Virus record (IMG/VR): IMGVR_UViG_3300043613_000002
Span: 1 to 43,586 of that record
Strand: one strand, 5' to 3'
DNA: 43,586 nucleotides
Origin: a virus
In this document: positions 24,561 to 43,586 of the stretch, piece by piece
How positions within the stretch are numbered: position 1 is the first letter of the stretch
How the letters are laid out: the number at the start of each line of letters is the position of its first letter
Position numbers and translations under genes: made by a program
Notes under the pieces: model-generated
What the model was told of the DNA's origin: nothing
Database searches by the model: none
The model's input: the letters and a program-made list of their open reading frames with translations, nothing else

Positions 24561-24577
24561 TTTCGTTCCTCAGTCAC
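24561..24577 (-). promoter_or_regulatory. Conserved leader motif copy L1 (GTGACTGAGGAACGAAA on the - strand)
   Basis: One of four near-identical TGACYRAGGAACGARA elements lying 2-8 nt upstream of an ATG. Confidence 0.7.
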
Positions 24578-24831: not shown

Positions 24832-24847
24832 TCTCGTTCCTCGGTCA
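24832..24847 (-). promoter_or_regulatory. Conserved leader motif copy L2 (TGACCGAGGAACGAGA)
   Basis: Read directly. Confidence 0.7.
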
Positions 24848-24917
24848 TGCTATGGTCTGCTGCGTATTTGATTGTTGTAGCGGCCCTTGCAGGGTTAGTT
24901 TGGCTGGAAGACTATTT

Positions 24918-24969
24918 GTATAAACCAACTTGACCGATCCCGTTCTCACTCGCTCAGCGGCTAAGTTCG
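24918..24969 (+). repeat. 52-nt bipartite element, copy 1 (GTATAAACCAACTT-N27-GGCTAAGTTCG)
   Basis: Read directly. The stop codon TAG of gene 24961..25188 lies inside the 11-mer. Confidence 0.85.
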
Positions 24970-25188
24970 ATCTGCTTGAGAGCACGGTAGTGGCAGCAAT
25001 TCCGGATGGTCATCTTTAAGATGATCCCGGAGCATCGCCATATAGTTTGGGACGTGCAGCACTTCAATATTACCGGGCATCGTGGCGCTGTCGCGCTCTT
25101 GAAACCAACTATCCCTACCCGGACGAAGGTCTTGCCAGACTCGCCACCCAAGCGCTTTGGCTATCTCTAAATTTGCCTCGTTATCCAT
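24961..25188 (-). CDS. Hypothetical protein (75 aa)
   Basis: ORF track entry. The ATG is preceded by a T8G8 tract on the coding strand. Confidence 0.5.
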   Translation of the reverse strand: MDNEANLEIAKALGWRVWQDLRPGRDSWFQERDSATMPGNIEVLHVPNYMAMLRDHLKDDHPELLPLPCSQADRT

Positions 25189-25191
25189 GCA

Positions 25192-25207
25192 CCCCCCCCA
25201 AAAAAAA
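25192..25207. repeat. Homopolymer tract C8A8 (G8 then... read on the - strand as T8G8), ending 3 nt upstream of ATG 25188
   Basis: Read directly: acccccccca aaaaaaag. Confidence 0.9.
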
Positions 25208-25302
25208 GATCCAAATATCCCCGATCGGGGTATAAAGGAACAAGAATGTTGACCGTCTTTCTTCCACCGCGACGGTCAGGCGGGATCGCAACACCATTCT
25301 AA

Positions 25303-25497
25303 TCATCCATCCTTGATGGCAGGATTGAACGGCGCGGAAGCTTTATCCTCGTGATATCGGCAAAAATATTTTATGGTTTCGCTTCCATCAATTACCAGAC
25401 ATCTAACTGTAGATGTTTCTCTCGATTTGCATATTGTGCAGCGCGCCACTAACTTGAATTGAACAATCTCGTTCATGGTCTTTCGTTCCTCGGTCAT
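25303..25497 (-). CDS. Hypothetical Cys-rich small protein
   Basis: 64 aa from ATG 25497, which lies inside leader L3, or 57 aa from ATG 25476, which lies 4 nt after L3 and is more likely. Confidence 0.5.
   Translation of the reverse strand: MTEERKTMNEIVQFKLVARCTICKSRETSTVRCLVIDGSETIKYFCRYHEDKASAPFNPAIKDG
25481..25496 (-). promoter_or_regulatory. Conserved leader motif copy L3 (TGACCGAGGAACGAAA)
   Basis: Read directly. Confidence 0.7.
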
Positions 25498-25507
25498 GAC
25501 GGCTTAC

Positions 25508-25561
25508 AGAACTTAGCCTATCACGTTTCTGTTCTGCATTGCCGCTCAAGTTGTACTATCC
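25508..25561 (-). repeat. Bipartite element copy 2, inverted (GGATAGTACAACTT-N29-GGCTAAGTTCT on the - strand)
   Basis: Read directly. Lies upstream (in the sense direction) of gene 25303..25497. Confidence 0.85.
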
Positions 25562-25962: not shown

Positions 25963-25978
25963 TTTCGTTCCTTGGTCA
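25963..25978 (-). promoter_or_regulatory. Conserved leader motif copy L4 (TGACCAAGGAACGAAA)
   Basis: Read directly. Confidence 0.7.
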
Positions 25979-26143: not shown

Positions 26144-26473
26144 CTAGGCGCAATCACGCAAAATGTTGCGAATTATGAGGCTGTCCATGCTCGGCACATC
26201 GTGCCGTTTGTAGACATCGTATTTCATCCCGGCCGGGACTTCATCGTCTGGCCTTCCTGCCAAGGCTCCTTCGTATATGTCGCAGGCCTGTGCCAAATAG
26301 ATCTGTGCATTGACGCGACTGAGGCCGCCACGATCACGGGCTGCGGCTATCATCTGGCGTAATTCGCCGATGGACAGCCTGCTCTGGGTGCTCTTTTCGC
26401 TGGCCATTCTCTTGTTCATCCGCTTTTCCCGGTAGTATTCTGGATAAACCAACTTTGATGCTGCCATTCTCAT
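26144..26473 (-). CDS. Hypothetical protein (109 aa)
   Basis: ORF track entry with a GAGGAA RBS. The first codons overlap repeat copy 3. Confidence 0.55.
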   Translation of the reverse strand: MRMAASKLVYPEYYREKRMNKRMASEKSTQSRLSIGELRQMIAAARDRGGLSRVNAQIYLAQACDIYEGALAGRPDDEVPAGMKYDVYKRHDVPSMDSLIIRNILRDCA

Positions 26474-26493
26474 TTCCTCAGCGGCTAAGTTCG
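26442..26493 (+). repeat. 52-nt bipartite element, copy 3 (GGATAAACCAACTT-N27-GGCTAAGTTCG)
   Basis: Read directly. The 11-mer starts 1 nt after the stop of gene 26495..26797. Confidence 0.85.
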
Positions 26494-26494
26494 T

Positions 26495-26797
26495 TCAAGA
26501 GGGCGGAATCTCGCCTTTGTCGTTCATTCGGTTGGTATCATCTACCGCCTTGCGGTAGCTGTCCTTGAAGTCCTTGTACGTCCGCGGCGCATCCCACATA
26601 TCAAGGATGGCAGCGCACTTGTCCTCGATCGACATTGAATGCCATCGGGGTCCTGGGCTGATGTGCCAGCCGGTATTGCCCTTGTCGATCATATCGACGA
26701 CACGAGCTTGGAACTTCTGTATTGAGGTACGCGGACACTTGCTCGGAGCGCCGCAGTATTTATCGCCGGTATTTCCGCAAACTTGACACTGGCTCAT
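26495..26797 (-). CDS. Hypothetical Cys-rich protein (100 aa)
   Basis: ORF track entry with AAGGAGGAG RBS. N-terminus MSQCQVCGNTGDKYCG. Confidence 0.55.
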   Translation of the reverse strand: MSQCQVCGNTGDKYCGAPSKCPRTSIQKFQARVVDMIDKGNTGWHISPGPRWHSMSIEDKCAAILDMWDAPRTYKDFKDSYRKAVDDTNRMNDKGEIPPS

Positions 26798-26813
26798 ATG
26801 CTTCTCCTCCTTT

Positions 26814-26823
26814 GAACTTAGCC
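26814..26823 (-). repeat. Isolated decamer GGCTAAGTTC (- strand), 16 nt upstream of ATG 26797
   Basis: Read directly. Inverted relative to the 11-mer of copy 3. Confidence 0.8.
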
Positions 26824-26830
26824 AACAGCG

Positions 26831-27082
26831 TTAGTGATGAAGCTCGGCGCTCTCGTCCTCATCGTCGGCATCATCGGCATCATCTTCTTCATCAATTAAG
26901 ACCTCCGCGTTCGGGTACCAGTCCTTAGCCCAGCGGGTAGCGGCATCGATAGGCTCGCCGATTTTGCAGGTTTTGAAATGATCCGGAACATCTCCCTCGA
27001 TTGGCGGCTGTTCCATCTTCCAATAGACATCGATCTGCCAGAAGCCCTTTTCGTGCAGCGAAATGACGGCATAGTCTTTCAT
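26831..27082 (-). CDS. Small protein with a poly-acidic C-terminal tail
   Basis: 83 aa. C-terminus LIDEEDDADDADDEDESAELHH. Confidence 0.55.
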   Translation of the reverse strand: MKDYAVISLHEKGFWQIDVYWKMEQPPIEGDVPDHFKTCKIGEPIDAATRWAKDWYPNAEVLIDEEDDADDADDEDESAELHH

Positions 27083-27260: not shown

Positions 27261-28331
27261 TTAAGCTTTTTTAGCCTCGTCCCGCACCTTCCCATCTGGT
27301 GAGGGAATAGAAGTTCCGGGTTTGGACAGTTTGCCCATGTGCTCCGCGGCGAGCCGGCGCCGGTCAGCAGCCTTGGTGTAGAGGGCCGCCATCTGTCCCC
27401 CCTGCCATCCGAAGATCGCCTCCAGGGTCGCCACCGTGGCGCCGTTGTTCGCTGCGCGGGTCGCTGCGGCCTTCCTGATCCCGTGTCCCGACTTTGCTAT
27501 GCCGGCGGTCCGGCAGGCCTTCTTGAACATATTGCCAAGCGATTCCTTGCGGATGGGCTGTCCCTTCTTGCTGGCGATGATCGATAATTCCCCCAGCGGT
27601 CCGGCCTCCAGGATCTCTGCTAACTCCGGCAACACGGGGATCGTAACCCGCGTGTCGTTCTTCTCGGTGTCGATCGTGATGACGCCGTGTCGGATATGCT
27701 GCTTGCCGAGTTTGGCCGCATCGCCGCGGCGCAGTCCGGTGAAGCAATAGACGCCAAACATAACACGTTCGCGCGTTCCTAGCTTCCAATAAGCTTCGTA
27801 CTGCTCAAGTTCTTCTTCGGTCCATTCTGGAAAGCCTCTTGTCTTCGGCTTTCTCACTTTCTTTCCCGTGGTCGGATCTGAGCTGATGTGCTGGGCACCA
27901 ACCGCCCATTTGAACATGCCGCGCATAGTGTCGAGGAAATGCCGGCCCGCGAACGCCTTGCGGCGCTCAATGCCTTGGTCGATCGCCTTGTTGGTGATCT
28001 TCGATAGTGGCTGATTGCCGCCGGTCTTTAGAACCCCGCGCATGATGTTTTCGCGCTGCTTACGGGTAGCCATTGAAAGCTCGGTCCATGCGGTCGTCTG
28101 TCGATAGAGCATCCACAGCCATTCCAACGAGCCCTTGAGGGCCTTCCCTGCGGGCTGCGGTGACTTGCCGTTCAGCGCAGCTTGATAGGCTTCCTCAAAT
28201 TCCGTCGTGCCGTAGACAGCCTTTATGCGAATCCTCGGGCCTTTGCCGATGCGGACATACCAGACCGTTTTACCGTGGCGGTTGGTTTCCCGGTGAAGGT
28301 GGGGTGGGCGAGGGCGGGGCATGCCTATCAA
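27261..28331 (-). CDS. int: Tyrosine integrase
   Basis: Catalytic motifs GLRRGD, HGIRKAAATR and LYTK read directly. The likely ATG start is 28322 (MPRPRPP); the track start is TTG at 28331. Confidence 0.92.
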   Translation of the reverse strand: MIGMPRPRPPHLHRETNRHGKTVWYVRIGKGPRIRIKAVYGTTEFEEAYQAALNGKSPQPAGKALKGSLEWLWMLYRQTTAWTELSMATRKQRENIMRGVLKTGGNQPLSKITNKAIDQGIERRKAFAGRHFLDTMRGMFKWAVGAQHISSDPTTGKKVRKPKTRGFPEWTEEELEQYEAYWKLGTRERVMFGVYCFTGLRRGDAAKLGKQHIRHGVITIDTEKNDTRVTIPVLPELAEILEAGPLGELSIIASKKGQPIRKESLGNMFKKACRTAGIAKSGHGIRKAAATRAANNGATVATLEAIFGWQGGQMAALYTKAADRRRLAAEHMGKLSKPGTSIPSPDGKVRDEAKKA

Positions 28332-29794: not shown

Positions 29795-30474
29795 GGCTGG
29801 GTTTCCGGAGCGGAGGAGGACTGCGCTACAGCCATTTCGATTGCATCTCCGCAACGTTGGCAGTGCCACTTACCGTCGAGGCTGATTATCGCGGCATGCG
29901 CGCAGCTCTCGCCCGTTACTGGATCTGCGGCGGGCTGTTCCGGGGGTGATGCGAGCGCGGCTAGATATCGGTCGGCATATCGTTTACCGAGCCCATCGAA
30001 TGGTCGATTATCAGCCATAAAATATGCCACGATGATCTCGCGCAACGTTAATGGCTCGTAGCAATCTATCTCGATAGGAATATCCAGATCCCTCCCCCGC
30101 AATGGGGAGGCCGGTTGGGCGATGAGAACGGCTCTTGCTTTTTGATGGGGACATTCACCCATTTCATAAGCGCTCTCAGCATCCCTCGAATGCCCCATGC
30201 AGGTGCAGTCGGAAAAGCCCTTTAGGTTGGCGGCCTGCCGTTCATACGCGAGCAAATCCAGCAACGCTTCTCGCTCCCCACCAACCGCAGGCGTGGCAGC
30301 GAGAGCTGCCAGAACCGCAGCCCGCTTGCTCACATGCATCTGCATCGTGATCATGTCGTTGTTGTCGGGGATCTGGTGGGCGATCTCGTCGGCGATGTCG
30401 GTCGTGGTGCCCATGCGATTGGGCTGGCTGGTGGAGAGGACTTCGGCGTGGCAGTCGGGGCAGGTTTTGGTCAT
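29791..30474 (-). CDS. Hypothetical Cys-rich protein (227 aa)
   Basis: Starts MTKTCPDCHAEV. The ATG at 30474 forms an ATGA overlap with the upstream micro-ORF. Confidence 0.6.
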   Translation of the reverse strand: MTKTCPDCHAEVLSTSQPNRMGTTTDIADEIAHQIPDNNDMITMQMHVSKRAAVLAALAATPAVGGEREALLDLLAYERQAANLKGFSDCTCMGHSRDAESAYEMGECPHQKARAVLIAQPASPLRGRDLDIPIEIDCYEPLTLREIIVAYFMADNRPFDGLGKRYADRYLAALASPPEQPAADPVTGESCAHAAIISLDGKWHCQRCGDAIEMAVAQSSSAPETQP

Positions 30475-30641
30475 GACAAAAATCCCACACACAGAGCACC
30501 AACCACGCCGACGATAATGAGCAGCCAGCCGTTTCCGGAGGTGCTGTACATGCTAGGCGCAGGGCTGCTGTATTTGGCGCCGCTCTCAAGCAAAAGCCAC
30601 ACCACGCCAACCACAGCGACAATTCCAAAAAATGCAGTCAT
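30471..30641 (-). CDS. Micro-ORF, two-TM peptide (56 aa)
   Basis: MTAFFGIVAVVGVVWLLLES...WLLIIVGVVGALCVGFLS. GAGGAA RBS. Confidence 0.45.
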   Translation of the reverse strand: MTAFFGIVAVVGVVWLLLESGAKYSSPAPSMYSTSGNGWLLIIVGVVGALCVGFLS

Positions 30642-30680
30642 TTTATTTCCTCAAGCGAGAGCGTGTGCATTTGGTCATTT

Positions 30681-30732
30681 GGATAGTTCAACTTTCATGC
30701 TGATCGGATCATTCGCGCAGCGGCTAAGTTCG
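30681..30732 (+). repeat. 52-nt bipartite element, copy 4 (GGATAGTTCAACTT-N27-GGCTAAGTTCG)
   Basis: Read directly. The stop TAG of gene 30724..31029 lies inside the 11-mer. Confidence 0.88.
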
Positions 30733-31029
30733 TTCGCCATTCGCGAGCGCGCGTAGCGCCGGCACGATGCGATCTAGATTGTTGTGCAGAAGGCAAAGCA
30801 ACTCGCCCAGCTCCGGCGTCACGTACTGAGCCACCTCAACCGTCAGATTATCGCCCATGTGTTTGGCGGTGTACCTGACATGGTTAAAGTGGTCCGTCCC
30901 GTCCTTGTAGGAGTGAGGCTCTTCCTCAACTCGCCATTCCTCACGGTGCTTGGACCAAAGCAGGCGAAGGCGGTCGGCTAGTTCGATGTTGTTCACGTGA
31001 CTGTTTTCCTCTCTACTGATGATCGTCAT
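30724..31029 (-). CDS. Hypothetical protein (101 aa) bracketed by inverted repeat copies 4 and 5
   Basis: ORF track entry. Confidence 0.55.
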   Translation of the reverse strand: MTIISREENSHVNNIELADRLRLLWSKHREEWRVEEEPHSYKDGTDHFNHVRYTAKHMGDNLTVEVAQYVTPELGELLCLLHNNLDRIVPALRALANGERT

Positions 31030-31040
31030 CTATCTTTCTT

Positions 31041-31093
31041 GGTACTTAGCCGCTGCGCTTCTGTTCATCCGTGACATTCAAGTTGAACTATAC
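31041..31093 (-). repeat. Bipartite element copy 5, inverted (GTATAGTTCAACTT-N28-GGCTAAGTACC on the - strand)
   Basis: Read directly. The 15-nt GCGCAGCGGCTAAGT is identical to copy 4. The element ends 11 nt from ATG 31029. Confidence 0.88.
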
Positions 31094-31100
31094 AAATCCT

Positions 31101-31166
31101 TCAAGCGAGAGCGACGAACGCAAACAGGAAGGTAAGGAAGAGGGCGATGGTCAGGGCTGTGATCAT
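31101..31166 (-). CDS. Possible 21-aa hydrophobic micro-ORF
   Basis: MITALTIALFLTFLFAFVALA. GGAGGAACGACA precedes the ATG. ATGA overlap with the HNH gene stop. Confidence 0.2.
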   Translation of the reverse strand: MITALTIALFLTFLFAFVALA

Positions 31167-31936
31167 TGTCGTTCCTCCGGCTGTTGCCTAATGGCGGTCA
31201 TGAAGACTTCTTTTTCTTTCTCCGAGAGATCGAAGAAGCCATGAATGACGGCGGAAACTCTTTTTAAGCTGGCAGCTTCATCGGTATGCGAAAAGCGCTC
31301 AGCGCCAATCCCACCAAAGGTTGGCAAAAGAGGCGTCAAAAGCGCCCGCTCCTCTGTCCAGCCCCTATCCAGGCGCAGCAGGAACGCGTCATACTTCAGG
31401 CCGACCATCTCTGCAGCTTCTGAAGCGGGCATGGGGCGACCGAAGAAAGTAATAACTCTACGGCCTCGACGGTTTCGCATTTGCTGCGTTTTGGTCGCCC
31501 AGCGGCAGTTTCCGGGCTCGTAATTTCCGTCATTGTCGATCCTGTCCAGCGAATGCTTGGGAGACGGCTTGCGGCCCATATTCTCTAAGAACGCGGGATA
31601 GCTGTTGAGCCATCGTTCGCAGACTGAGATTCCGCGACCTCCGTAATAGGAAAAGCTATCGTCCTTCGGGTCCGTGCATCGGCGGATAAAGCCGCGCCAG
31701 CAAGATAGTTCTGGAGCGACATTCCCGCGTTCGGCGTCGCCATGCTTGAAGCTTCGGAGGCCCAATTGGCTTTTCTTAATGCATCCGCAGCTCTTTGATT
31801 GCCGAATACTGCCCCCACGCATAATTTTTTCGTTTCCGCAGTCGCATCTAATATTCCAAAGAGAGACCGGTCCAGCGTAGCTGACGACATTTATCATGCC
31901 AATCTTGCGACCAGCCATATCAATTAGCTGCCTCAT
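31163..31936 (-). CDS. HNH-type endonuclease-like protein
   Basis: HSLDRIDNDGNYEPGNCRWATKTQQMRN is an HNH_3-like motif. The internal ATG at 31936 is ATGA-coupled to the upstream stop. Confidence 0.68.
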   Translation of the reverse strand: MRQLIDMAGRKIGMINVVSYAGPVSLWNIRCDCGNEKIMRGGSIRQSKSCGCIKKSQLGLRSFKHGDAERGNVAPELSCWRGFIRRCTDPKDDSFSYYGGRGISVCERWLNSYPAFLENMGRKPSPKHSLDRIDNDGNYEPGNCRWATKTQQMRNRRGRRVITFFGRPMPASEAAEMVGLKYDAFLLRLDRGWTEERALLTPLLPTFGGIGAERFSHTDEAASLKRVSAVIHGFFDLSEKEKEVFMTAIRQQPEERQ

Positions 31937-32768: not shown

Positions 32769-32923
32769 CGTTCTGCCTTGTCATATTTGCGAACCGCGGA
32801 CTGAACCGCATCCGCTGTGAACTGCATTCTTGTCTTGCGAGCCAATCGACATGCGACCTCACGCCAGCATTGCCAGATGCCGTACAGGCGAAGCGCCTCA
32901 TTGATGTCGATTGGCTCACGCAT
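32765..32923 (-). CDS. Small hypothetical protein (52 aa)
   Basis: MREPIDINEALRLYGIWQCWREVACRLARKTRMQFTADAVQSAVRKYDKAER. TGATG and ATGA coupling to its neighbours. Not in the ORF track. Confidence 0.45.
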   Translation of the reverse strand: MREPIDINEALRLYGIWQCWREVACRLARKTRMQFTADAVQSAVRKYDKAER

Positions 32924-33591
32924 CAGGCGGCCTTCTTGGTAAGAACTGCCCGGCGATCAATGACCGCGGTCTTGAGCGTTTGAACTTGGGTGCTATCAAG
33001 CTGGTATTCCCGCCGCGCCTTCTTCTGCGCATCAGAGTTCCACCAGGTGCCGAGCAACTCAGCGTCATCGAACTGGGCGATGGCTTCCCGGCATTCGACC
33101 ATGAAGGCGTTGCGCTCAAGCATCGGGACGGCCTTTTCTGCCGGAGCATCGTCGCCAACGTTGGTCTGTTGTTTGTCGTAAAGGGCGAGGCCGAACGGAT
33201 TGCCGAATGTCATAAAGGCGCGCTTCATAGAATCAGTCTCGGCTTCCTTGATCGCGCTCTCATGAGCCTGACCAAGATCCCGGTCTATCCCGTGACCGGC
33301 GCCAAAGCCTTCGCGCGCCACGCCATTAATGATGATGCGAGACTTGCAGACGTAGGTGACGCCCCAGCCTGGAGCCTTCTGCTTGCCGATCTCGCGCTCT
33401 TTCTCGGCAACGCACTTCACGTCAATGGTTTCGCGGGTCCAGTTATCGAACCCGAAGATGCGATTGGCTTCTGCGATGACATGCCAGCCTTCGATATAGC
33501 TGACCCGACTTCCGCCTTGTTCGCGTGTTTTAACGCTGCTGGGAGAGAGCTTGGCAGCGAGTGCTGATTTGGTTTCGTCGGAGAACATCAC
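32923..33591 (-). CDS. Rad52/Rad22-family single-strand annealing protein
   Basis: SYIEGWHVIAEANRIFGFDNW...ETDSMKRAFMTFGNPFGLALYD is characteristic of the Rad52 fold family. Confidence 0.85.
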   Translation of the reverse strand: MMFSDETKSALAAKLSPSSVKTREQGGSRVSYIEGWHVIAEANRIFGFDNWTRETIDVKCVAEKEREIGKQKAPGWGVTYVCKSRIIINGVAREGFGAGHGIDRDLGQAHESAIKEAETDSMKRAFMTFGNPFGLALYDKQQTNVGDDAPAEKAVPMLERNAFMVECREAIAQFDDAELLGTWWNSDAQKKARREYQLDSTQVQTLKTAVIDRRAVLTKKAA

Positions 33592-35011: not shown

Positions 35012-35113
35012 TCACAGGTTAATAATGAGCAGATACAGAGAGCCGTATGATCCGATCACGACGGCAACCGAGGCGGCGAGGAAAAGGGTGGTGTGGCGGG
35101 AAGTCAGGATCAT
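35012..35113 (-). CDS. Micro-ORF, TM peptide (33 aa)
   Basis: MILTSRHTTLFLAASVAVVIGSYGSLYLLIINL. TGATG overlap with the upstream stop. Confidence 0.3.
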   Translation of the reverse strand: MILTSRHTTLFLAASVAVVIGSYGSLYLLIINL

Positions 35114-35892
35114 CACGCTGCCTCCAGCTCAGTAAGAGCGAGCCACTGGACGCCCGGCACCTTCATTTCGATTAGGATCTGGACGACGCCTTCCGCGAAG
35201 TCCGCGAGCGATTTATCGCGAGCGTAGGCGGCGTCGGCGGCGTCGGCGGCGTCGACGTCGGCGGCGTAGGCGGCGGCGGCGGCGTAGGCGGCGGCGTCGG
35301 CGGCGTCGGCGTAGGCGGCGTAGGCGGCGGCGGCGGCGTCGGCGTAGGCGGCGTAGGCGGCGTAGGCGGCGTAGGCGGCGGCGGCGGCGGCGGCGGCCTG
35401 TCGCGCTGAGCGCGCGACTTCGTGGGCATCCAACGCAGATTGCCGAGTGCCTTCGATCTCGCAACGGTTCGCCGCATCACGCAGTGCCTGAACATGCTTC
35501 GGGTCTTTGTGGATCGAAGCAGCGGCACGCAGTGCGATCGGAACGGAAGTCTTCGTTGCCAGAACCGCACAGTGGGTTGCAAATTCCTTAGCGTCCAGAT
35601 GACCCTTGCTGCCAAGTTGGATCACAGCGAGACGACGGAGGCCCTTGGCGCGCGCTTGATCAGACGACCAGCGAGAATCGTTCAGTCGGATTTTCAGAGA
35701 ACGAAGCGAAGGCGCGACGCACTGCGGATCATCACCGTGGGGCAGGCCGAGCGCGTAGCACACGGCGGCCTCGACGCACATCTGACCCGGGATCGGATTG
35801 CCGACACCATTGACCAAACCTGCATCAACGATCTCGAGAAGCTTGATAACAACGTCTTTGGTGATTTCGGGCTGCATTTTTGCTTGATCCAT
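35113..35892 (-). CDS. First PL-operon protein; globular N-domain plus an Ala/Tyr/Asp low-complexity repeat
   Basis: 259 aa. Contains AAYAAYAAYADAAAAAYAAYADAADAAAYAAAAAYAADVDAADAADAAYA. Confidence 0.68.
   Translation of the reverse strand: MDQAKMQPEITKDVVIKLLEIVDAGLVNGVGNPIPGQMCVEAAVCYALGLPHGDDPQCVAPSLRSLKIRLNDSRWSSDQARAKGLRRLAVIQLGSKGHLDAKEFATHCAVLATKTSVPIALRAAASIHKDPKHVQALRDAANRCEIEGTRQSALDAHEVARSARQAAAAAAAAYAAYAAYAAYADAAAAAYAAYADAADAAAYAAAAAYAADVDAADAADAAYARDKSLADFAEGVVQILIEMKVPGVQWLALTELEAA
35222..35397. repeat. GCN-triplet / 9-nt tandem repeat tract (gcggcgtag, gcggcgtcg and gcggcggcg units)
   Basis: Read directly. Four consecutive ggcgtaggc units lie near 35340..35380. Confidence 0.9.
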
Positions 35893-35914: not shown

Positions 35915-35942
35915 GTTCTATCACGCATTGTGATAATGTAAA
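35915..35942 (-). promoter_or_regulatory. PL-like promoter with an embedded 17-bp operator
   Basis: The - strand reads TTTACA-ttatcacaatgcgtga-TAGAAC. The operator TATCAC-N5-GTGATA is at 35919..35935. Confidence 0.6.
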
Positions 35943-35990
35943 GGGGCAAAACTAAAAATAATTACAAAATGTGATTTTTCTTAAAATGAT

Positions 35991-36123: not shown

Positions 36124-36324
36124 GTGCGGGGGTTTGGAATGGGAATACCCTTACCGTGGCATCGGCGACATGCTCTATTGCTGGCAAGCCAGCTGCCGGA
36201 AAACCCGACCGACGCTCATTTGGTCATTGAGGCCGTTGCGGAGCTGCTGGATACGTTCATGGCGACCGCGCCTGAAGAGACGGCCGACCGGAATAAAAAC
36301 GTCCTACCGTTCGCCGCTAGCTAG
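36124..36324 (+). CDS. Small hypothetical protein convergent with the repressor gene
   Basis: 66-aa track ORF (GTG 36124, or ATG 36139). Its 3' end overlaps the repressor 3' end by 21 nt. Confidence 0.35.
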   Translation: MRGFGMGIPLPWHRRHALLLASQLPENPTDAHLVIEAVAELLDTFMATAPEETADRNKNVLPFAAS

Positions 36325-36621
36325 CTGGAGAGGGGTTTCCTTAGCCTCTTCCGCTTCGACGCGCTGTCGAAGATCGAAGGACAGCCCTCTTTTGTCGCCT
36401 TCCCACAGCCAAAGCGGGTCGAACCCTGGTATCTTGCTGCGGAGCTGGAGGGCCTTATCCATTGGAACCCGACGTTTGCCGGTTTCGAACTGGCTATAGC
36501 CAGACTGCCCCCACCCGACTTGTACGGCAAAAGCGGTCCCTGTGCTGACTTTCTCGGCCTGACGGAGCCATCGTAGCCGCCTACCTTGCTCCGCGAAGGG
36601 ATATTCCGACTCTTCTGTCAT
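36304..36621 (-). CDS. XRE-family HTH repressor (CI-like), no peptidase domain
   Basis: 105 aa from ATG 36621. HTH region LRQAEKVSTGTAFAVQVGWGQSGYSQFETGKR. Divergent from the cro-like gene. Confidence 0.78.
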   Translation of the reverse strand: MTEESEYPFAEQGRRLRWLRQAEKVSTGTAFAVQVGWGQSGYSQFETGKRRVPMDKALQLRSKIPGFDPLWLWEGDKRGLSFDLRQRVEAEEAKETPLQLASGER

Positions 36622-36673
36622 GATCCAATTTTGCAACACAAACGGTGACCGGGCTAATTTCTTTTTGTGAGTA

Positions 36674-36701
36674 TTGACATTATCACACGCCGTGATAGAT
36701 G
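36674..36701 (+). promoter_or_regulatory. PR-like promoter with an embedded 17-bp operator
   Basis: TTGACA-ttatcacacgccgtga-TAGATG. The operator TATCAC-N5-GTGATA is at 36681..36697. The -10 ends 8 nt before ATG 36710. Confidence 0.62.
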
Positions 36702-36709
36702 TTTCGGTC

Positions 36710-36946
36710 ATGATCAGAAAACTCCATTCCGTACAAGAAGTCATTGATGAGCTTGGCGGTTATGACGCCGTTAAGTCTTTGACCAATCGAAGCAGCCAGT
36801 CTGTCATTCCGACGTGGAAGTGGCGGAAGAAATTCCCCCCCAACACATTCGCTGTGATGAGGGCTGCGCTGTTGGCAAGGGGCGCCATTGCCCCGGCCTC
36901 GTTGTGGGGAATGCCGGAGTTGCAGATGGAGGCTACTGCCTCATGA
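36710..36946 (+). CDS. Cro / YdaS-like small DNA-binding regulator
   Basis: 78 aa. ELGGYDAVKSLTNRSSQSVIPTWKWRKKFP resembles YdaS/Cro-type HTH proteins. First gene after PR. Confidence 0.65.
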   Translation: MIRKLHSVQEVIDELGGYDAVKSLTNRSSQSVIPTWKWRKKFPPNTFAVMRAALLARGAIAPASLWGMPELQMEATAS

Positions 36947-40380: not shown

Positions 40381-41716
40381 ACTGAAGCGGAAATCCGACG
40401 CGATATTTTTCAAATACCCGGTAGGCTGGAAAGCTCGATCCGTCCCAGAAAAAGCATTCACGGCGATGACCGGGACCAAGCCGGTATTCTGGAATCTGGC
40501 AAATGTTTTAGCTGGAGCCAGCCCGGTAATTTACATCACGGAAGGCGAACTGGACGCCTGTGCGTTGGTCGAAGCGGGGATTCCCGTTTCGCAGGTTCTG
40601 TCGGTCCCCAATGGGGCTGTAGAGCGTCCTGCGGAGGCGGACAAGGAAGTTCGTGGTTATGCCTACGTTTTGGAAGCCCTCGCTGCCGGGCTCCGCAAGA
40701 CGAAGAAATTCGTATGGTGCGGCGATAACGATGCGCCGGGTTTATCCCTGCGTGCGGATATGGCGAGAATGCTTGGCCTCCCAAGATTTTGGTTTGTGGA
40801 ATGGCCGGAAGGCTGCAAGGACGCCAACGATGTTTTAAAACACGAGGGGCCGGAATTCCTGCTCAGTCTCGTGACTGATGGCGCCTTGCAATGGCCGATT
40901 GATGGGCTGTTCAAGCTTTCGGAATTGCCTGATCCGCCAGCCATGACGTTGTGGAATCCTGGCTTTCCGGAGTGGGAAAAGAAGGTGTTTCTTGCCCCTC
41001 GAACTATGAGCGTTGTCACCGGACATCCAGGCCACGGCAAGACGCAACTGTGGACGCAGATCTGGTTCAATATCGTCCGGGCATACTGCGTGCCGATCGC
41101 GATTGCGTCGTTTGAGACCCGCGCCAAGCCTCACGTCCGTAGGTATCTGAGGACTCTTCTAATCGGGAAACTGGAGAAGGATTGCGACGAAGGAGAATTG
41201 GCAAAGGCCGATAAATGGATTGAGGAGCGCTATTTGTTCATGGTGCATCCGGAGGGTCGGCCATCGCTGAAATGGTTTCTGGACCTTGCGGAGGTCGCGG
41301 TTGTTCGTCACGGCGCCAGAATAATCCAGGTCGACCCATGGAACAGGCTGGAAGCTGCTCGAGGCCGTGACCAGAGCGAAACTGAATACATCGGCATGTG
41401 CTTGCGGGAAATACATTCGTTCGCCCACGACATGAACTGTCACGTCCAGATCCTGGCTCATCCGGCGAAAATGGAAGGTGCGCGCCGCGGTAACGCACCG
41501 GGTCTCGAGGATATCTCAGGCTCAAAGAACTGGGAAAACATGGTGGATCAAGGCTTCGTCGTTCATCGGCCGAAGATGTTTGACGGCAAAACCAGAATTA
41601 CCGAGGCGGAACTTTACCACAAGAAGGCGCGGTTTGATGATCTCGGTTACCCGTGCGTGCTCGATTTAGATTTCAAGATCAGTCAGGGCAAATACGTTTC
41701 GAGGGATTACGCATGA
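40235..41716 (+). CDS. TOPRIM primase / DnaB-like helicase (T7 gp4-like architecture)
   Basis: TOPRIM motifs ITEGELDACAL and CGDNDAPG. Walker A GHPGHGKT and Walker B IIQVDPWN. GAGGA lies 6 nt before the ATG. Confidence 0.85.
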   Translation: MTALQLIAGTADGPPGLSAAAVLFATSRKLSLRTLDRLGVGSGTVFFPELKRKSDAIFFKYPVGWKARSVPEKAFTAMTGTKPVFWNLANVLAGASPVIYITEGELDACALVEAGIPVSQVLSVPNGAVERPAEADKEVRGYAYVLEALAAGLRKTKKFVWCGDNDAPGLSLRADMARMLGLPRFWFVEWPEGCKDANDVLKHEGPEFLLSLVTDGALQWPIDGLFKLSELPDPPAMTLWNPGFPEWEKKVFLAPRTMSVVTGHPGHGKTQLWTQIWFNIVRAYCVPIAIASFETRAKPHVRRYLRTLLIGKLEKDCDEGELAKADKWIEERYLFMVHPEGRPSLKWFLDLAEVAVVRHGARIIQVDPWNRLEAARGRDQSETEYIGMCLREIHSFAHDMNCHVQILAHPAKMEGARRGNAPGLEDISGSKNWENMVDQGFVVHRPKMFDGKTRITEAELYHKKARFDDLGYPCVLDLDFKISQGKYVSRDYA

Positions 41717-41850
41717 AACCATACAAGCTTGACTCGATAAGCGACGAAGAAAAGGAACGCCAAAAAAAAGCCAAGGCTGACTACCTTGCGCGGCTGGAGG
41801 AGTCGAGGAAGTGGCTGAAAGAGTACGTGCGGCCGACGATCAATGGCTAA
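41713..41850 (+). CDS. Small hypothetical protein (45 aa)
   Basis: ATGA-coupled. Its stop TAA lies inside a GGCTAAGTT motif. Confidence 0.45.
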   Translation: MKPYKLDSISDEEKERQKKAKADYLARLEESRKWLKEYVRPTING

Positions 41851-41855
41851 GTTTC
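41845..41855 (+). repeat. 11-mer GGCTAAGTTTC, 16 nt upstream of ATG 41872
   Basis: Read directly. Same decamer family as the accessory-region repeats. Confidence 0.75.
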
Positions 41856-41871
41856 AGGAAGGACTACGGAT

Positions 41872-42045
41872 ATGAGCGATTTTGATGATGTTCACGAATC
41901 TTGGAAGAAAGCCAAACGCGAATATGACCTCGCAGAACGCAATTTAGCTATGGCGAGAGCGCGTCTTACTGACGCTGATCGCTCCAAACAAGCCGAGTGG
42001 GATAAGCTGGTGGAACGAGCGCGGGTTAGTGCGACTGCTTACTAA
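41872..42045 (+). CDS. Small hypothetical protein (57 aa), bracketed by inverted 11-mers
   Basis: MSDFDDVHESWKKAKREYDLAERNLAMARARL... Not in the ORF track. Confidence 0.45.
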   Translation: MSDFDDVHESWKKAKREYDLAERNLAMARARLTDADRSKQAEWDKLVERARVSATAY

Positions 42046-42056
42046 CGAACTTATCC
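42046..42056 (-). repeat. Inverted 11-mer variant (CGAACTTATCC on the + strand, GGATAAGTTCG on the - strand), directly after stop 42045
   Basis: Read directly. One mismatch to GGCTAAGTTCG. Overlaps a small hairpin, TTATCC-gaacag-GGATAA. Confidence 0.7.
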
Positions 42057-42071
42057 GAACAGGGATAACGA

Positions 42072-42311
42072 ATGACACGCAATGAGGCTGAGATGTTGGC
42101 AATAAAGGCTGTTGGCTTTGAATTCAGCGAGGATGCGCGCCGCCATCTAGTTATTCTGGAAACTCTCGGGATACTCAAGTTCGAGGAGCCGAAGACGGTC
42201 GGGAAGCTCATTGTTGAAATTAGTAAGACAGGCAATTCCCATCGAGAATTGCTGGAGTGGGTCGGAGTACTCAACGACGCCGGCCTTCAAATCATCAAAA
42301 AGGGGCAATGA
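42072..42311 (+). CDS. Hypothetical protein (79 aa) ending IIKKGQ
   Basis: ORF track entry. Confidence 0.55.
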   Translation: MTRNEAEMLAIKAVGFEFSEDARRHLVILETLGILKFEEPKTVGKLIVEISKTGNSHRELLEWVGVLNDAGLQIIKKGQ

Positions 42312-42312
42312 A
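42288..42312 (+). repeat. 25-nt direct repeat, copy 1 (caaatcatcaaaaaggggcaatgaa)
   Basis: 24/25 identical to 42525..42549. Confidence 0.85.
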
Positions 42313-42548
42313 TGACGAGCGAAGTTGAAATCTCGGATGATGGCAAAAAGAAGCACCAAAGCTTCAGTGCGCGCTGGGCTTTAGACGCGCTGGGAGGAAT
42401 GGGCTCGCGGAATGTAAACCTGGAGGGCTGGGGAGCCACGGAGGTTGAAAGCCGCGAGCAACTGATCACACAGGCCCGGATGGCTCGCGACGGTCTGAAT
42501 TCGGCAATCGAAATGATGATAAGTCAAATCATCGAAAAGGGGCAATGA
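42312..42548 (+). CDS. Hypothetical protein (78 aa) ending IIEKGQ
   Basis: ORF track entry. Confidence 0.55.
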   Translation: MTSEVEISDDGKKKHQSFSARWALDALGGMGSRNVNLEGWGATEVESREQLITQARMARDGLNSAIEMMISQIIEKGQ

Positions 42549-42549
42549 A
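42525..42549 (+). repeat. 25-nt direct repeat, copy 2 (caaatcatcgaaaaggggcaatgaa)
   Basis: Read directly. Confidence 0.85.
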
Positions 42550-43426: not shown

Positions 43427-43586
43427 ATGAGCCTTTGCAAAAATCGCAGCGTTGGCCAGCAATTCTTGGCTGAAGAAGATCAGACCATGGAGCAGATCAG
43501 CCAGCTCATGGCTGCGAATGAGTGCTTCGTGGATACGAACGAGAATAATTGGCGATTTGATCCGGTAACGCTCAGGTGGGTCAGAG
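43427..43586 (+). CDS. 5' part of the junction-spanning hypothetical ORF (continues at 84..112 in the circle)
   Basis: GGAGG lies 5 nt before the ATG. Runs through the terminal repeat. Confidence 0.45.
   Translation, partial: MSLCKNRSVGQQFLAEEDQTMEQISQLMAANECFVDTNENNWRFDPVTLRWVR
43504..43586. repeat. Terminal direct repeat copy 2, identical to 1..83
   Basis: Read directly. Confidence 0.95.

Follow-up and report, generated by a model that had tools for sequence, protein, structure and literature searches.

What do two inverted repeats that tightly bracket a single small gene in a phage genome do, and does the arrangement occur elsewhere? The window analysed here, a stretch of 43,586 nucleotides, is a complete P22-like temperate phage genome of an alphaproteobacterium. 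A preliminary description reported inverted repeats of 52 and 53 nt around a 101-aa gene, and every sequence statement in it was confirmed. The left copy, 30681-30732 (+), reads GGATAGTTCAACTT-N27-GGCTAAGTTCG, and the right copy, 31041-31093 (-), reads GTATAGTTCAACTT-N28-GGCTAAGTACC. The 14-mers match at 13 of 14 positions, and GCGCAGCGGCTAAGT is identical at 30715-30729 and, inverted, at 31044-31058. The stop codon of ORF 30724-31029 (-) is the TAG inside the left box, and the ATG at 31029 lies 11 nt from the right box. Chance was excluded, because CAACTT-N27/28-GGCTAAGT occurred 4 times against 0.00 expected from 100 shuffles, and GGCTAAGT occurred 7 times against 0.52 expected. The observation is therefore real.

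Two details were corrected. The repeats, hereafter called arms, extend a few bases beyond the ends first given (ATTT on the outside, TTCG or ACC on the inside). The true start of the bracketed gene is probably GTG 30996 rather than ATG 31029, giving about 90 aa, since aligned homologues begin MNN.ELADRL and GAGAGGAAAA sits 7 nt upstream of the GTG. The upstream (5', sense) arm of this cassette, cassette c, spans 31038-31099 (-) (nhmmer E = 1.6e-15) and contains box1 GTATAGTTCAACTT, an alpha-type spacer GAATGTCACGGATGAACAGAAGCGCAGC and box2 GGCTAAGTAC, followed by CAAGAAAG and the ATG. The downstream (3') arm, 30677-30734 (+) (E = 8.7e-13), is antisense to the gene and contains box1 GGATAGTTCAACTT, a beta-type spacer and box2 GGCTAAGTTCG, the complement of which supplies the TAG stop. 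The cargo gene gave no Pfam or PHROG hit.

The claim that the same architecture recurs at three other loci of the window held with a qualification. A profile search found six copies, comprising five full arms and one truncated arm. Cassette a is complete, with an upstream arm at 25506-25561 (-) (E = 5.7e-9) and a downstream arm at 24913-24971 (+) (E = 8.2e-13). Its cargo, 24961-25497 (-), consists of two small ORFs (25303-25497, 64 aa; 24961-25188, 75 aa) separated by a C/A homopolymer tract, and the box2 TAG is the stop codon of the second, which ends in DRT. Cassette b (cargo 26495-26797 (-), 100 aa) has a downstream arm at 26436-26495 (+) (E = 7e-13), whereas its upstream arm, 26809-26851 (-) (E = 5e-4), is truncated to the end of the spacer plus box2, and the upstream gene 26831-27082 ends (ELHH, then stop) inside it. 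Locus d has only a box2 pair of 10-11 nt. Its upstream boundary, 41845-41854 (+) (GGCTAAGTTT), provides the TAA stop of ORF 41713-41850 and is followed by a ribosome-binding site and ATG, whereas the box2-like downstream boundary, 42047-42057 (-) (GGATAAGTTCG on the minus strand), directly follows the TAA of the 57-aa cargo gene 41872-42045 (+).

We then asked how widely these arms are distributed. The general form is box1, (A)TTTGGATA-NNN-CAACTT (core GGATA-NNN-CAACTT), a family-specific spacer of ~27 nt, and box2, CAGCGGCTAAGTWC. Pattern scans of IMG/VR and of soil or rhizosphere metagenomes found the same family in about 34 non-redundant soil and rhizosphere phage contigs. A scan of 185,579 representative genomes gave 8 hits, of which seven were chance matches in unrelated taxa and one was a Bradyrhizobium prophage, which ruled out a generic host intergenic repeat. 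This prophage, of Bradyrhizobium sp. URHD0069 (contig NZ_JNIJ01000008.1, here locus L007), carries its cassette at L007 5255-5615. No match was found in 50,697 sequenced phages or in plasmids, Rfam gave no hit at the gathering threshold or at E <= 1, and no tRNA was found. A literature search for the motif strings returned only irrelevant primer hits. The statement that no described element has this consensus thus agrees with our searches, and we regard the arms as a previously undescribed, phage-specific family.

The architecture is strict. Of 61 confident arms in 34 non-redundant loci, 51 had an inverted partner within 1 kb on the box2 side, none had a same-orientation neighbour, and most unpaired arms lay at contig ends. 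In all 19 cassettes analysed, an alpha-type arm lay upstream in sense and a beta, gamma or delta-type arm lay downstream, on whichever strand the operon ran. The upstream arm was followed by a ribosome-binding site. In 10 of the 13 cargo ORFs that run into the downstream arm, the stop was the box2 TAG in one frame, giving tails such as ERT or GT. Upstream genes can end inside the spacer of the 5' arm, as seen for ELHH in three phages. One empty slot was identified in locus L058 (L numbers denote loci retrieved for comparison), where the 5' arm and the 3' arm are separated by 22 nt, whereas the only hit in a search of IMG/VR for empty slots was an unrelated hairpin.

The preliminary description had offered three roles without choosing among them: boundary or recombination sites of an exchangeable gene cassette, an mRNA panhandle or RNase III-type processing site, and paired regulator sites. 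This interpretation was partly supported, with comparative evidence favouring the first role. L065, L069, L074 and L078 share arms and outer flanks at 93-96% identity but carry four unrelated cargos, and similarity ends at GGCTAAGTTC on one side and at G(G)AACTTAGCC on the other, that is, exactly at box2. Window cassette b, L004 and L073 share arms (94% identity between the downstream arms of cassette b and L004) but not cargo, since at this slot L004 carries two unrelated ORFs and L073, which has the full-length version of the truncated upstream arm, carries a 106-aa ORF. L001 has slot c with a different cargo. Conversely, L044 and L077 are 72.6% identical over 525 nt covering exactly the cassette, whereas their flanks are unrelated at both the DNA and tblastx levels. 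Because all arms resemble each other, the data cannot tell whether the arms travelled with the cargo or stayed with the backbone in this case. Cargo comes from the ordinary gene pool, and cargo families also occur without arms. There are 23 metagenomic homologues of the cassette c cargo, those inspected lie in phage contigs without flanking arms, and in L089 one lies next to what, by eye alone, looks like a homologue of the L007 cargo. The 25 cargo proteins fall into 24 families, including a CcrM-like DNA methyltransferase, an Acb2/Tad1 hairpin-domain protein (E = 7e-13) and a GapR-like protein. The accessory genes carried between the arms include anti-defence genes.

These features could also suggest a non-autonomous transposon, a MITE with a passenger gene whose 52-60-bp terminal inverted repeats are bound by a transposase encoded elsewhere. 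The long bipartite terminal inverted repeats with conserved ends, the small size (0.3-0.9 kb), the occurrence of one cassette in two unrelated backbones and the empty, hairpin-only form fit this reading. However, there was no general target-site duplication. Flanking direct repeats appeared in only 2 of 18 cassettes and were long, diverged and at variable offsets. In the window, a 13-nt direct repeat CGCTCTCGCTTGA at 31101-31113 (-), just upstream of cassette c, pairs with a second copy at 30651-30663 (-), just downstream of the cassette and in front of the ribosome-binding site of gene 30471-30641, and is a possible recombination scar. Arm spacer subtypes followed the backbone rather than the cargo, the arms are absent from host genomes, and no transposase was seen among the ORFs scanned in the complete genome or in the fetched loci, although this search was not exhaustive. 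We consider this explanation very unlikely.

The possibility that selection acts at the RNA level was examined next. In this view, the two arms would pair in the polycistronic early mRNA into a long-range panhandle that loops out the cargo gene and serves as an RNase III-type processing site or as an insulator of translation or decay, with cassette exchange as a by-product of conserved sequence. The panhandle is thermodynamically predicted. It appeared in both the MFE and centroid structures of cassette c (z = -5.0), 25-54 long-range pairs were expected in 17 of 19 cassettes, and the empty L058 slot folded into a ~125-nt hairpin (z = -2.6). In addition, the rule of sense arm upstream and antisense arm downstream follows the direction of transcription on both strands, two conserved blocks with a variable middle look like stem, internal loop, stem, and box2 ends 3-10 nt from the Shine-Dalgarno sequence, so pairing could gate initiation. 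Nevertheless, there was no covariation support. Cofold energy was -48.7 kcal/mol for true partners against -50.4 for non-partners (p = 0.91), and paired cells numbered 569 against 578 +/- 8 for shuffled partners (p = 0.89). Positions 6-8 of box1 matched between partners in only 3 of 19 cassettes, which splits the outer stem into two 6-bp helices, and the recurrent G-to-T change at box1 position 2 was compensated in 1 of 4 cassettes. Rfam offered no match, and loops of 200-800 nt that are being translated disfavour pairing. The panhandle therefore remains possible but doubtful.

Other functions of the arms were also examined. No sigma70-type promoter or intrinsic terminator was found in the arms; CTTGAG is -35-like, but no -10 follows at 16-19 bp, and ECF, sigma54 and Caulobacter-type consensus sequences do not fit. 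A leader peptide in the alpha spacer was rejected because the frame is broken by stops in several arms. Ribosomal bypass was considered because the arms have GGA-TAG at the take-off position and a GGA about 52 nt later, as in T4 gene 60, but upstream ORFs do not enter GGA TAG in frame. Paired operator sites for a phage regulator that loops or blocks the bracketed gene, in the manner of stoperators or ESAS elements, would agree with blocks of invariant primary sequence without covariation, with the near-palindromic box2 and with the spacing of about four helical turns between the boxes. However, a regulator does not explain why similarity between related phages ends exactly at box2 while cargo differs, or why sites must always be inverted with box2 inward, and no conserved regulator gene co-occurs with arms. 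This reading appears very unlikely.

Which enzyme might exchange the cargo? The gene upstream of cassette c, 31163-31936, is indeed an HNH endonuclease (phrog_374, E = 7e-60), but the suggested mobility link is not supported. HNH and DUF968 genes are often neighbours of arms, DUF968 in 7 loci, but arm-less relatives carry them too, and we treat this as synteny. Relatives retrieved through the 233-aa neighbour of cassette c have the syntenic order DUF968 ... 233-aa gene with other small genes and no arms between, and one degenerate solo arm lies further downstream in L115. The phage also encodes a Rad52-family single-strand annealing protein, 32923-33591 (-) (PF04098, E = 2e-38), which is, by inference only, a candidate for catalysing short-homology exchange at the arms. 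The 31 loci retrieved through this protein share only that gene, lack arms and gave no empty-site comparison, so the gene is not sufficient.

A dedicated site-specific system, in which a recombinase recognises the invariant boxes and crossovers occur at a fixed point at or next to box2, was considered as a phage counterpart of dif modules or recombinase-mediated cassette exchange. The recombinase could be the phage tyrosine integrase, whose genes lie near cassettes in the window, L085, L055 and L081 (within about 0.5 kb in several contigs), or an unidentified protein. Several findings agree with this reading. The boxes are invariant without covariation, cargo boundaries fall exactly at the inner edge of box2 in the four orthologous phages, and the truncated arms and locus d keep box2, indicating that box2 is the minimal boundary. 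Moreover, box2 is a near-palindrome (ACTYAGC-S-GCTRAGT), and the cargo stop in the box2 TAG is common where a recombination site overlaps a gene end. On the other hand, no specialised recombinase was found. The integrase is a generic phage integrase far below the Xer and IntI family cut-offs, and its closeness to cassettes is explained by synteny, since cassettes a and b lie in the att-proximal non-essential region. No 6-8-bp overlap flanked by inverted binding sites is evident, and no inverted-cargo variants appeared among 19 cassettes, although inverted sites should allow inversion. A resemblance to the lambda Int core-type consensus CAACTTNNT rests on a 6-mer only and is not treated as evidence. 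This alternative is possible but tentative. In its boldest form, which remains equally tentative, the arms are sites of a so far unknown exchange system, in effect a "phage integron" that works by double site-specific crossover at box2 rather than by excision and integration and that stocks fixed expression slots in the early operons with anti-defence and other accessory genes from a shared pool.

Our preferred explanation, held with moderate confidence, is that the arms are the boundaries of exchangeable gene cassettes. In this view, the arms belong to the phage backbone and sit in non-essential parts of the early operons of P22-like temperate phages of soil Alphaproteobacteria, Bradyrhizobium being the one identified host. 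The unit that changes would be the DNA between the two inward-facing box2 copies, namely a ribosome-binding site plus one or two small ORFs. We infer that cargo is swapped between co-resident phages or prophages by one crossover in each arm, most probably driven by the 15-60 bp of shared arm sequence and the Rad52-type annealing protein or host recombination. The inverted orientation would allow replacement but prevent loss of the gene by direct-repeat deletion, the same topology as engineered cassette exchange, and the different spacers of the two arms would keep the cargo in sense. The arms would also act as an expression adaptor, the sense arm ending just before the Shine-Dalgarno sequence and the antisense arm supplying stop codons. 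The sequences themselves establish the family, its architecture, its orientation rule, cargo replacement and cargo diversity, whereas the recombination mechanism and the enzymes are deduced, with no recombination event observed directly and no enzyme tied to the arms. GGATA, CAACTT and GGCTAAGT are 100% invariant across phages that share no other DNA similarity, which passive homology arms would not need and which points to sequence-specific recognition by a protein or to another selected function. Additionally, when donor and recipient spacers differ, the universally shared sequence is only about 15 bp around box2, which is short for homologous exchange.

Among described systems, the PeSL (promoter-early stem-loop) cassettes of T4-type phages (PMC2839356, PMC4122927) are likewise short conserved intergenic motifs repeated many times in hyperplastic, non-essential regions. 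They flank small ORFs of unknown function, and insertions, deletions and replacements between close relatives have their end-points at the motifs, as found here at box2. However, PeSLs combine a sigma70-like promoter with a terminator stem-loop, and recombination between nearby copies releases mini-circles (PMC2839356). PeSLs are direct repeats, the orientation that recombination into deletions and mini-circles requires. The arms have no recognisable promoter or terminator, are ~60-bp bipartite repeats in strictly inverted pairs whose topology forbids excision as a circle, and occur in temperate P22-like alphaproteobacterial phages. The dif modules of Acinetobacter plasmids (PMC13141974, PMC6449649) have the same inverted-site topology (PMC13141974), which precludes simple excision, so that movement is thought to need two recombination events, and their content is extensively shuffled between related replicons. 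Their pdif sites are 28-bp sites with an 11-bp XerC arm, a 6-bp spacer and an 11-bp XerD arm, used by host XerCD, whereas 0 of 56 arms contained the ATAA-N6-TTAT core and only 7 of 56 had anything within 3 mismatches of the XerD arm TTATGTTAAAT. The arms are also twice as long, lie in phages, bracket promoter-less ORFs inside operons and enclose only some genes, rather than tiling the whole replicon.

Integron cassettes are also promoter-less single-ORF units of very diverse content expressed from an outside promoter, with an imperfect-palindrome boundary that often overlaps the stop codon, and the empty L058 slot resembles a hairpin site. However, attC is one compact site downstream of each ORF and cassettes excise as circles through IntI, whereas here the ORF lies between the two halves of the palindrome, the cassettes are scattered, each with two half-elements, and no IntI is present, the only tyrosine recombinase being the generic phage integrase. 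The SAS/ESAS motifs of Cluster K mycobacteriophages (PMC3203893) are conserved start-associated sequences of unknown function with 17-bp imperfect inverted repeats at boundaries of non-structural genes, conserved across related phages, but the ESAS repeats lie together upstream of one start codon and do not bracket the gene, no cargo replacement is reported, and the sequences are unrelated. Bacterial MITE or REP-like elements (e.g. Correia, ERIC) and RNase III sites of T7 early mRNA resemble the empty form, a ~125-nt imperfect palindrome in an intergenic region of an operon that would form a long hairpin if transcribed. In contrast to these, the element is absent from host genomes, nearly all copies have a gene inside the palindrome, there is no target duplication, and there is no evidence of processing.

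How phages acquire and shuffle small accessory genes, many of them counter-defence genes, is largely explained by vague "mosaicism", and only a few concrete sequence devices are known, notably T4 PeSLs. The arms represent a second, structurally different device, sharply defined by an invariant sequence signature, a strict inverted topology, exact cargo boundaries, an empty slot and cargo that includes a methyltransferase and an Acb2/Tad1-like protein. They provide a searchable marker for hypervariable accessory-gene slots in soil phage metagenomes and, because the Bradyrhizobium sp. URHD0069 prophage carries a cassette, a testable system that can address whether phage gene exchange can be site-directed. 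The slots might also serve as natural landing pads for engineering these phages.

The arrangement given in the preliminary description was confirmed in every sequence statement. Positions 30681-30732 (+) read GGATAGTTCAACTT-N27-GGCTAAGTTCG, positions 31041-31093 (-) read GTATAGTTCAACTT-N28-GGCTAAGTACC, and the 15-mer GCGCAGCGGCTAAGT is shared between them in inverted orientation. As had been claimed, the TAG stop of ORF 30724-31029 (-) lies in the left box and its ATG lies 11 nt from the right box. However, the cargo protein of this cassette (cassette c) probably starts at GTG 30996, because its homologs start MNN.ELADRL and GAGAGGAAAA sits 7 nt upstream; the ATG at 31029 may therefore not be the real start. 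The pattern CAACTT-N27/28-GGCTAAGT occurred 4 times against 0.00 expected, and GGCTAAGT alone occurred 7 times against 0.52 expected. A profile built from the repeat family identified six copies (arms) in the window, forming three inverted pairs on the minus-strand operon: cassette a (24913-24971 and 25506-25561), cassette b (26436-26495 and the truncated 26809-26851) and cassette c (30677-30734 and 31038-31099). A fourth locus on the plus strand, locus d (41845-41854 and 42047-42057), has only the inner 10-11-mer.

The window is a complete ~43.5-kb phage genome in a circularly closed or permuted assembly, with an exact 83-nt terminal direct repeat (1-83 and 43504-43586). It encodes a P22-type portal and coat protein, a large terminase subunit, a tyrosine integrase (27261-28331), a Rad52-family annealing protein (32923-33591), a CI-like HTH protein, a primase-helicase and a GcrA-like protein, the last of which points to an alphaproteobacterial host. 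A 43-nt inverted repeat containing TATCAC..GTGATA palindromes (35917-35959 and 36657-36699) lies on both sides of the CI-like HTH gene (36304-36744), and these are probably the left and right operators of the immunity region. Additionally, about 16 overlapping copies of a 9-nt unit (GGCGGCGTM) at 35180-35422 inside ORF 35113-35892 (-) encode a repetitive, Ala-rich protein segment, and L001 carries an 87%-identical homolog (L numbers denote the comparison loci retrieved in this work).

Cassettes a and b lie beyond the integrase, in the att-proximal non-essential region, whereas cassette c lies among the early-left recombination genes, downstream of a DUF968 gene and an HNH gene, and locus d lies in the early-right operon. 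No Pfam or PHROG family was found for the bracketed proteins. A homopolymer tract (C8-9 followed by A8) at ~25191-25208, between the two small ORFs of cassette a, is a possible slippage-prone site. In addition, a second repeat family was found, in which the start-associated 14-mer TGACCRAGGAACGA occurs 4 times against 0 expected (24563-24576, 24834-24847, 25483-25496 and 25965-25978, - strand). Each copy lies a few bases upstream of a start codon of a small minus-strand gene, and one copy lies inside cassette a directly after the 5' arm. A 26-nt repeat, TCAAATCATCRAAAAGGGGCAATGAA, was also found at 42287-42312 and 42524-42549, at the 3' ends of two adjacent small genes (42072-42311 and 42312-42548), and is either a conserved gene-junction sequence or a sign of tandem paralogs.

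Degenerate pattern scans identified true copies of the arms in IMG/VR contigs and in 45 metagenome stretches, mostly soil and rhizosphere, of which about 35 are genuine. Among 185,579 representative genomes, true copies were found in only one, in a prophage of Bradyrhizobium sp. URHD0069 next to tRNA-Thr, and the seven other genome hits were chance matches in unrelated taxa. Nothing similar was found in 50,697 GenBank phage records, PLSDB plasmids, Rfam or the literature searched.

Alignment of 56 distinct arms showed that GGATA and CAACTT of the outer box (box1) and GGCTAAGT-C of the inner box (box2) are invariant or nearly so, whereas the three bases between GGATA(R) and CAACTT are hypervariable. 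The ~27-nt spacer falls into four families, alpha (GAGCGTCACGACGAAACAGAAACGCAGC), beta (TSATGSTSCCGKTCTCATTYSMTCAGC), gamma and delta. Of 61 confident arms in 34 non-redundant loci, 51 have an inverted partner within 1 kb on the box2 side and none has a direct neighbor; most of the unpaired arms sit at contig ends. Partners are often truncated to the box2 half, indicating that the box2 inverted repeat is the minimal boundary, as at locus d.

In all 19 cassettes analyzed, the upstream arm is sense and alpha-type, reads CAACTTG and is followed by ACCAAGGA-like Shine-Dalgarno sequences. Meanwhile, the downstream arm is antisense, of the beta, gamma or delta type, and reads CAACTTT, and the cargo ORF runs with the operon on whichever strand that is. 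Ten of the 13 cargo ORFs that run into the downstream arm stop at the box2 TAG in one frame, which gives unrelated proteins the tails ..ERT* or ..GT*. Similarly, three different upstream proteins end ..ELHH* inside the same 5' arm spacer. In the 3' flank of L065, L074 and L078, the gamma-type 3' arm is directly followed by an A-run and then a GC-rich hairpin (GGCCGCCAGCATTTCTGCCAGCGGCC), which on the opposite strand reads as an intrinsic terminator pointing towards the cassette. One slot is empty: in L058 (1239-1360), downstream of a 348-aa ORF, the 5' arm and the 3' arm are separated by only 22 nt (ACCAAGGAGACCAGCCGAACGA), which retain the Shine-Dalgarno sequence and the GAACGA tail but no ORF, and the next gene starts right after the arm.

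Several comparisons indicated that the cargo is exchanged. Specifically, L065, L069, L074 and L078 are closely related phages whose arms and outer flanks are 93-96% identical, but whose interiors are unrelated (87+115 aa, 74 aa, 111 aa and 64 aa), and similarity ends exactly at GGCTAAGTTC on one side and G(G)AACTTAGCC on the other. Cassette b of the window, L004 and L073 share arms (94% and 93%) but hold a 100-aa ORF, two ORFs of 75 and 68 aa, and a 106-aa ORF, respectively, and L001 is collinear with the window around slot c but holds a 0.7-kb cargo. Conversely, L044 and L077 share 72.6% identity over 525 nt that coincide with the cassette, whereas about 1 kb of flank on each side is unrelated at both the DNA and tblastx levels. 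Moreover, homologs of the cassette c cargo (23 proteins) sit, where inspected, in arm-less phage contigs, in one of which (L089) a homolog lies next to what, by eye, looks like a homolog of the cargo of L007, the Bradyrhizobium prophage. Cargo therefore seems to be drawn from the ordinary pool of small early genes. Spacer subtypes follow the backbone and not the cargo, so the arms are backbone features and the interior is the mobile part.

The topology is that of cassette exchange, because inverted sites allow replacement by one crossover in each arm but forbid deletion; the same argument is made for single dif modules (PMC13141974). The different 5' and 3' spacers would keep the orientation. 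Whereas the family, its architecture and orientation rule, and the replacement and diversity of the cargo come directly from the sequence comparisons, the recombination mechanism and the enzymes are inferred. We favor homology-driven exchange through the arms, possibly helped by the phage Rad52-type protein. Against this inference stand the strict invariance of the boxes among phages that share no other DNA similarity and the short (~15 bp) universal homology when spacers differ, both of which favor recognition by a protein, that is, a site-specific system. However, no specialized recombinase was found, the integrase is generic, and its proximity to cassettes is explained by synteny. The arms are also not dif-like. 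A dedicated site-specific cassette system is considered possible but rather unlikely.

Classical transposition is unlikely, as there is no general target duplication. The exceptions are the 13-nt repeat CGCTCTCGCTTGA flanking cassette c and a diverged 47-nt duplication of the downstream gene start in L007, which look like scars of illegitimate joins. In L115 a 93-aa gene is flanked by direct repeats of TGAGGACGGGACCATG (ribosome-binding site plus ATG; 1547-1562 and 1839-1854), the second of which is part of a degenerate solo 3' arm that has lost box2, an example of gene insertion by recombination at start-region microhomology.

The HNH gene next to cassette c had been suggested as a possible mobility link. 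DUF968 (an HNH-like fold) or HNH genes do neighbor arms in the window, L001, L002/L003, L049, L063, L068, L077 and L110, but the same genes occur in syntenic relatives without arms, and no functional link is shown by these data.

We also considered an mRNA panhandle formed by the two arms. Folding of the minus-strand transcript 31110-30665 predicted the panhandle in both the MFE and the centroid, at -165.4 kcal/mol with z = -5.0, and ensemble calculations gave 25-54 long-range pairs in 17 of 19 cassettes. The empty L058 slot is predicted to be a ~125-nt hairpin. However, true partners paired no better than shuffled partners, with cofold energies of -48.7 against -50.4 kcal/mol (p = 0.91) and 569 against 578 +/- 8 paired cells (p = 0.89), and the hypervariable triplet matched in only 3 of 19 pairs. 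The structure is possible and the orientation rule fits it, but nothing shows selection for it. If arms are shuffled often, a "universal connector" constraint could hide covariation, and the model is therefore not excluded.

Taken together, the preliminary observation is real, and its interpretation, which left several roles open including cassette boundaries and an mRNA panhandle, is supported in part. The element is a new, widespread family in soil phages, and its best-supported role is as a boundary of exchangeable accessory-gene cassettes. In function it resembles the already known PeSLs and dif modules, but it fails the defining sequence features of both. The 25 cargo proteins form 24 families, among which the recognizable ones are an Acb2/Tad1 hairpin-domain protein of the anti-CBASS/anti-Thoeris sponge family (L002 9100-9345; E = 7e-13), a CcrM-like adenine methyltransferase (L002 472-1215) and a GapR-like DNA-binding protein (L110 11805-12428), indicating that the slots carry counter-defense and host-manipulation genes.
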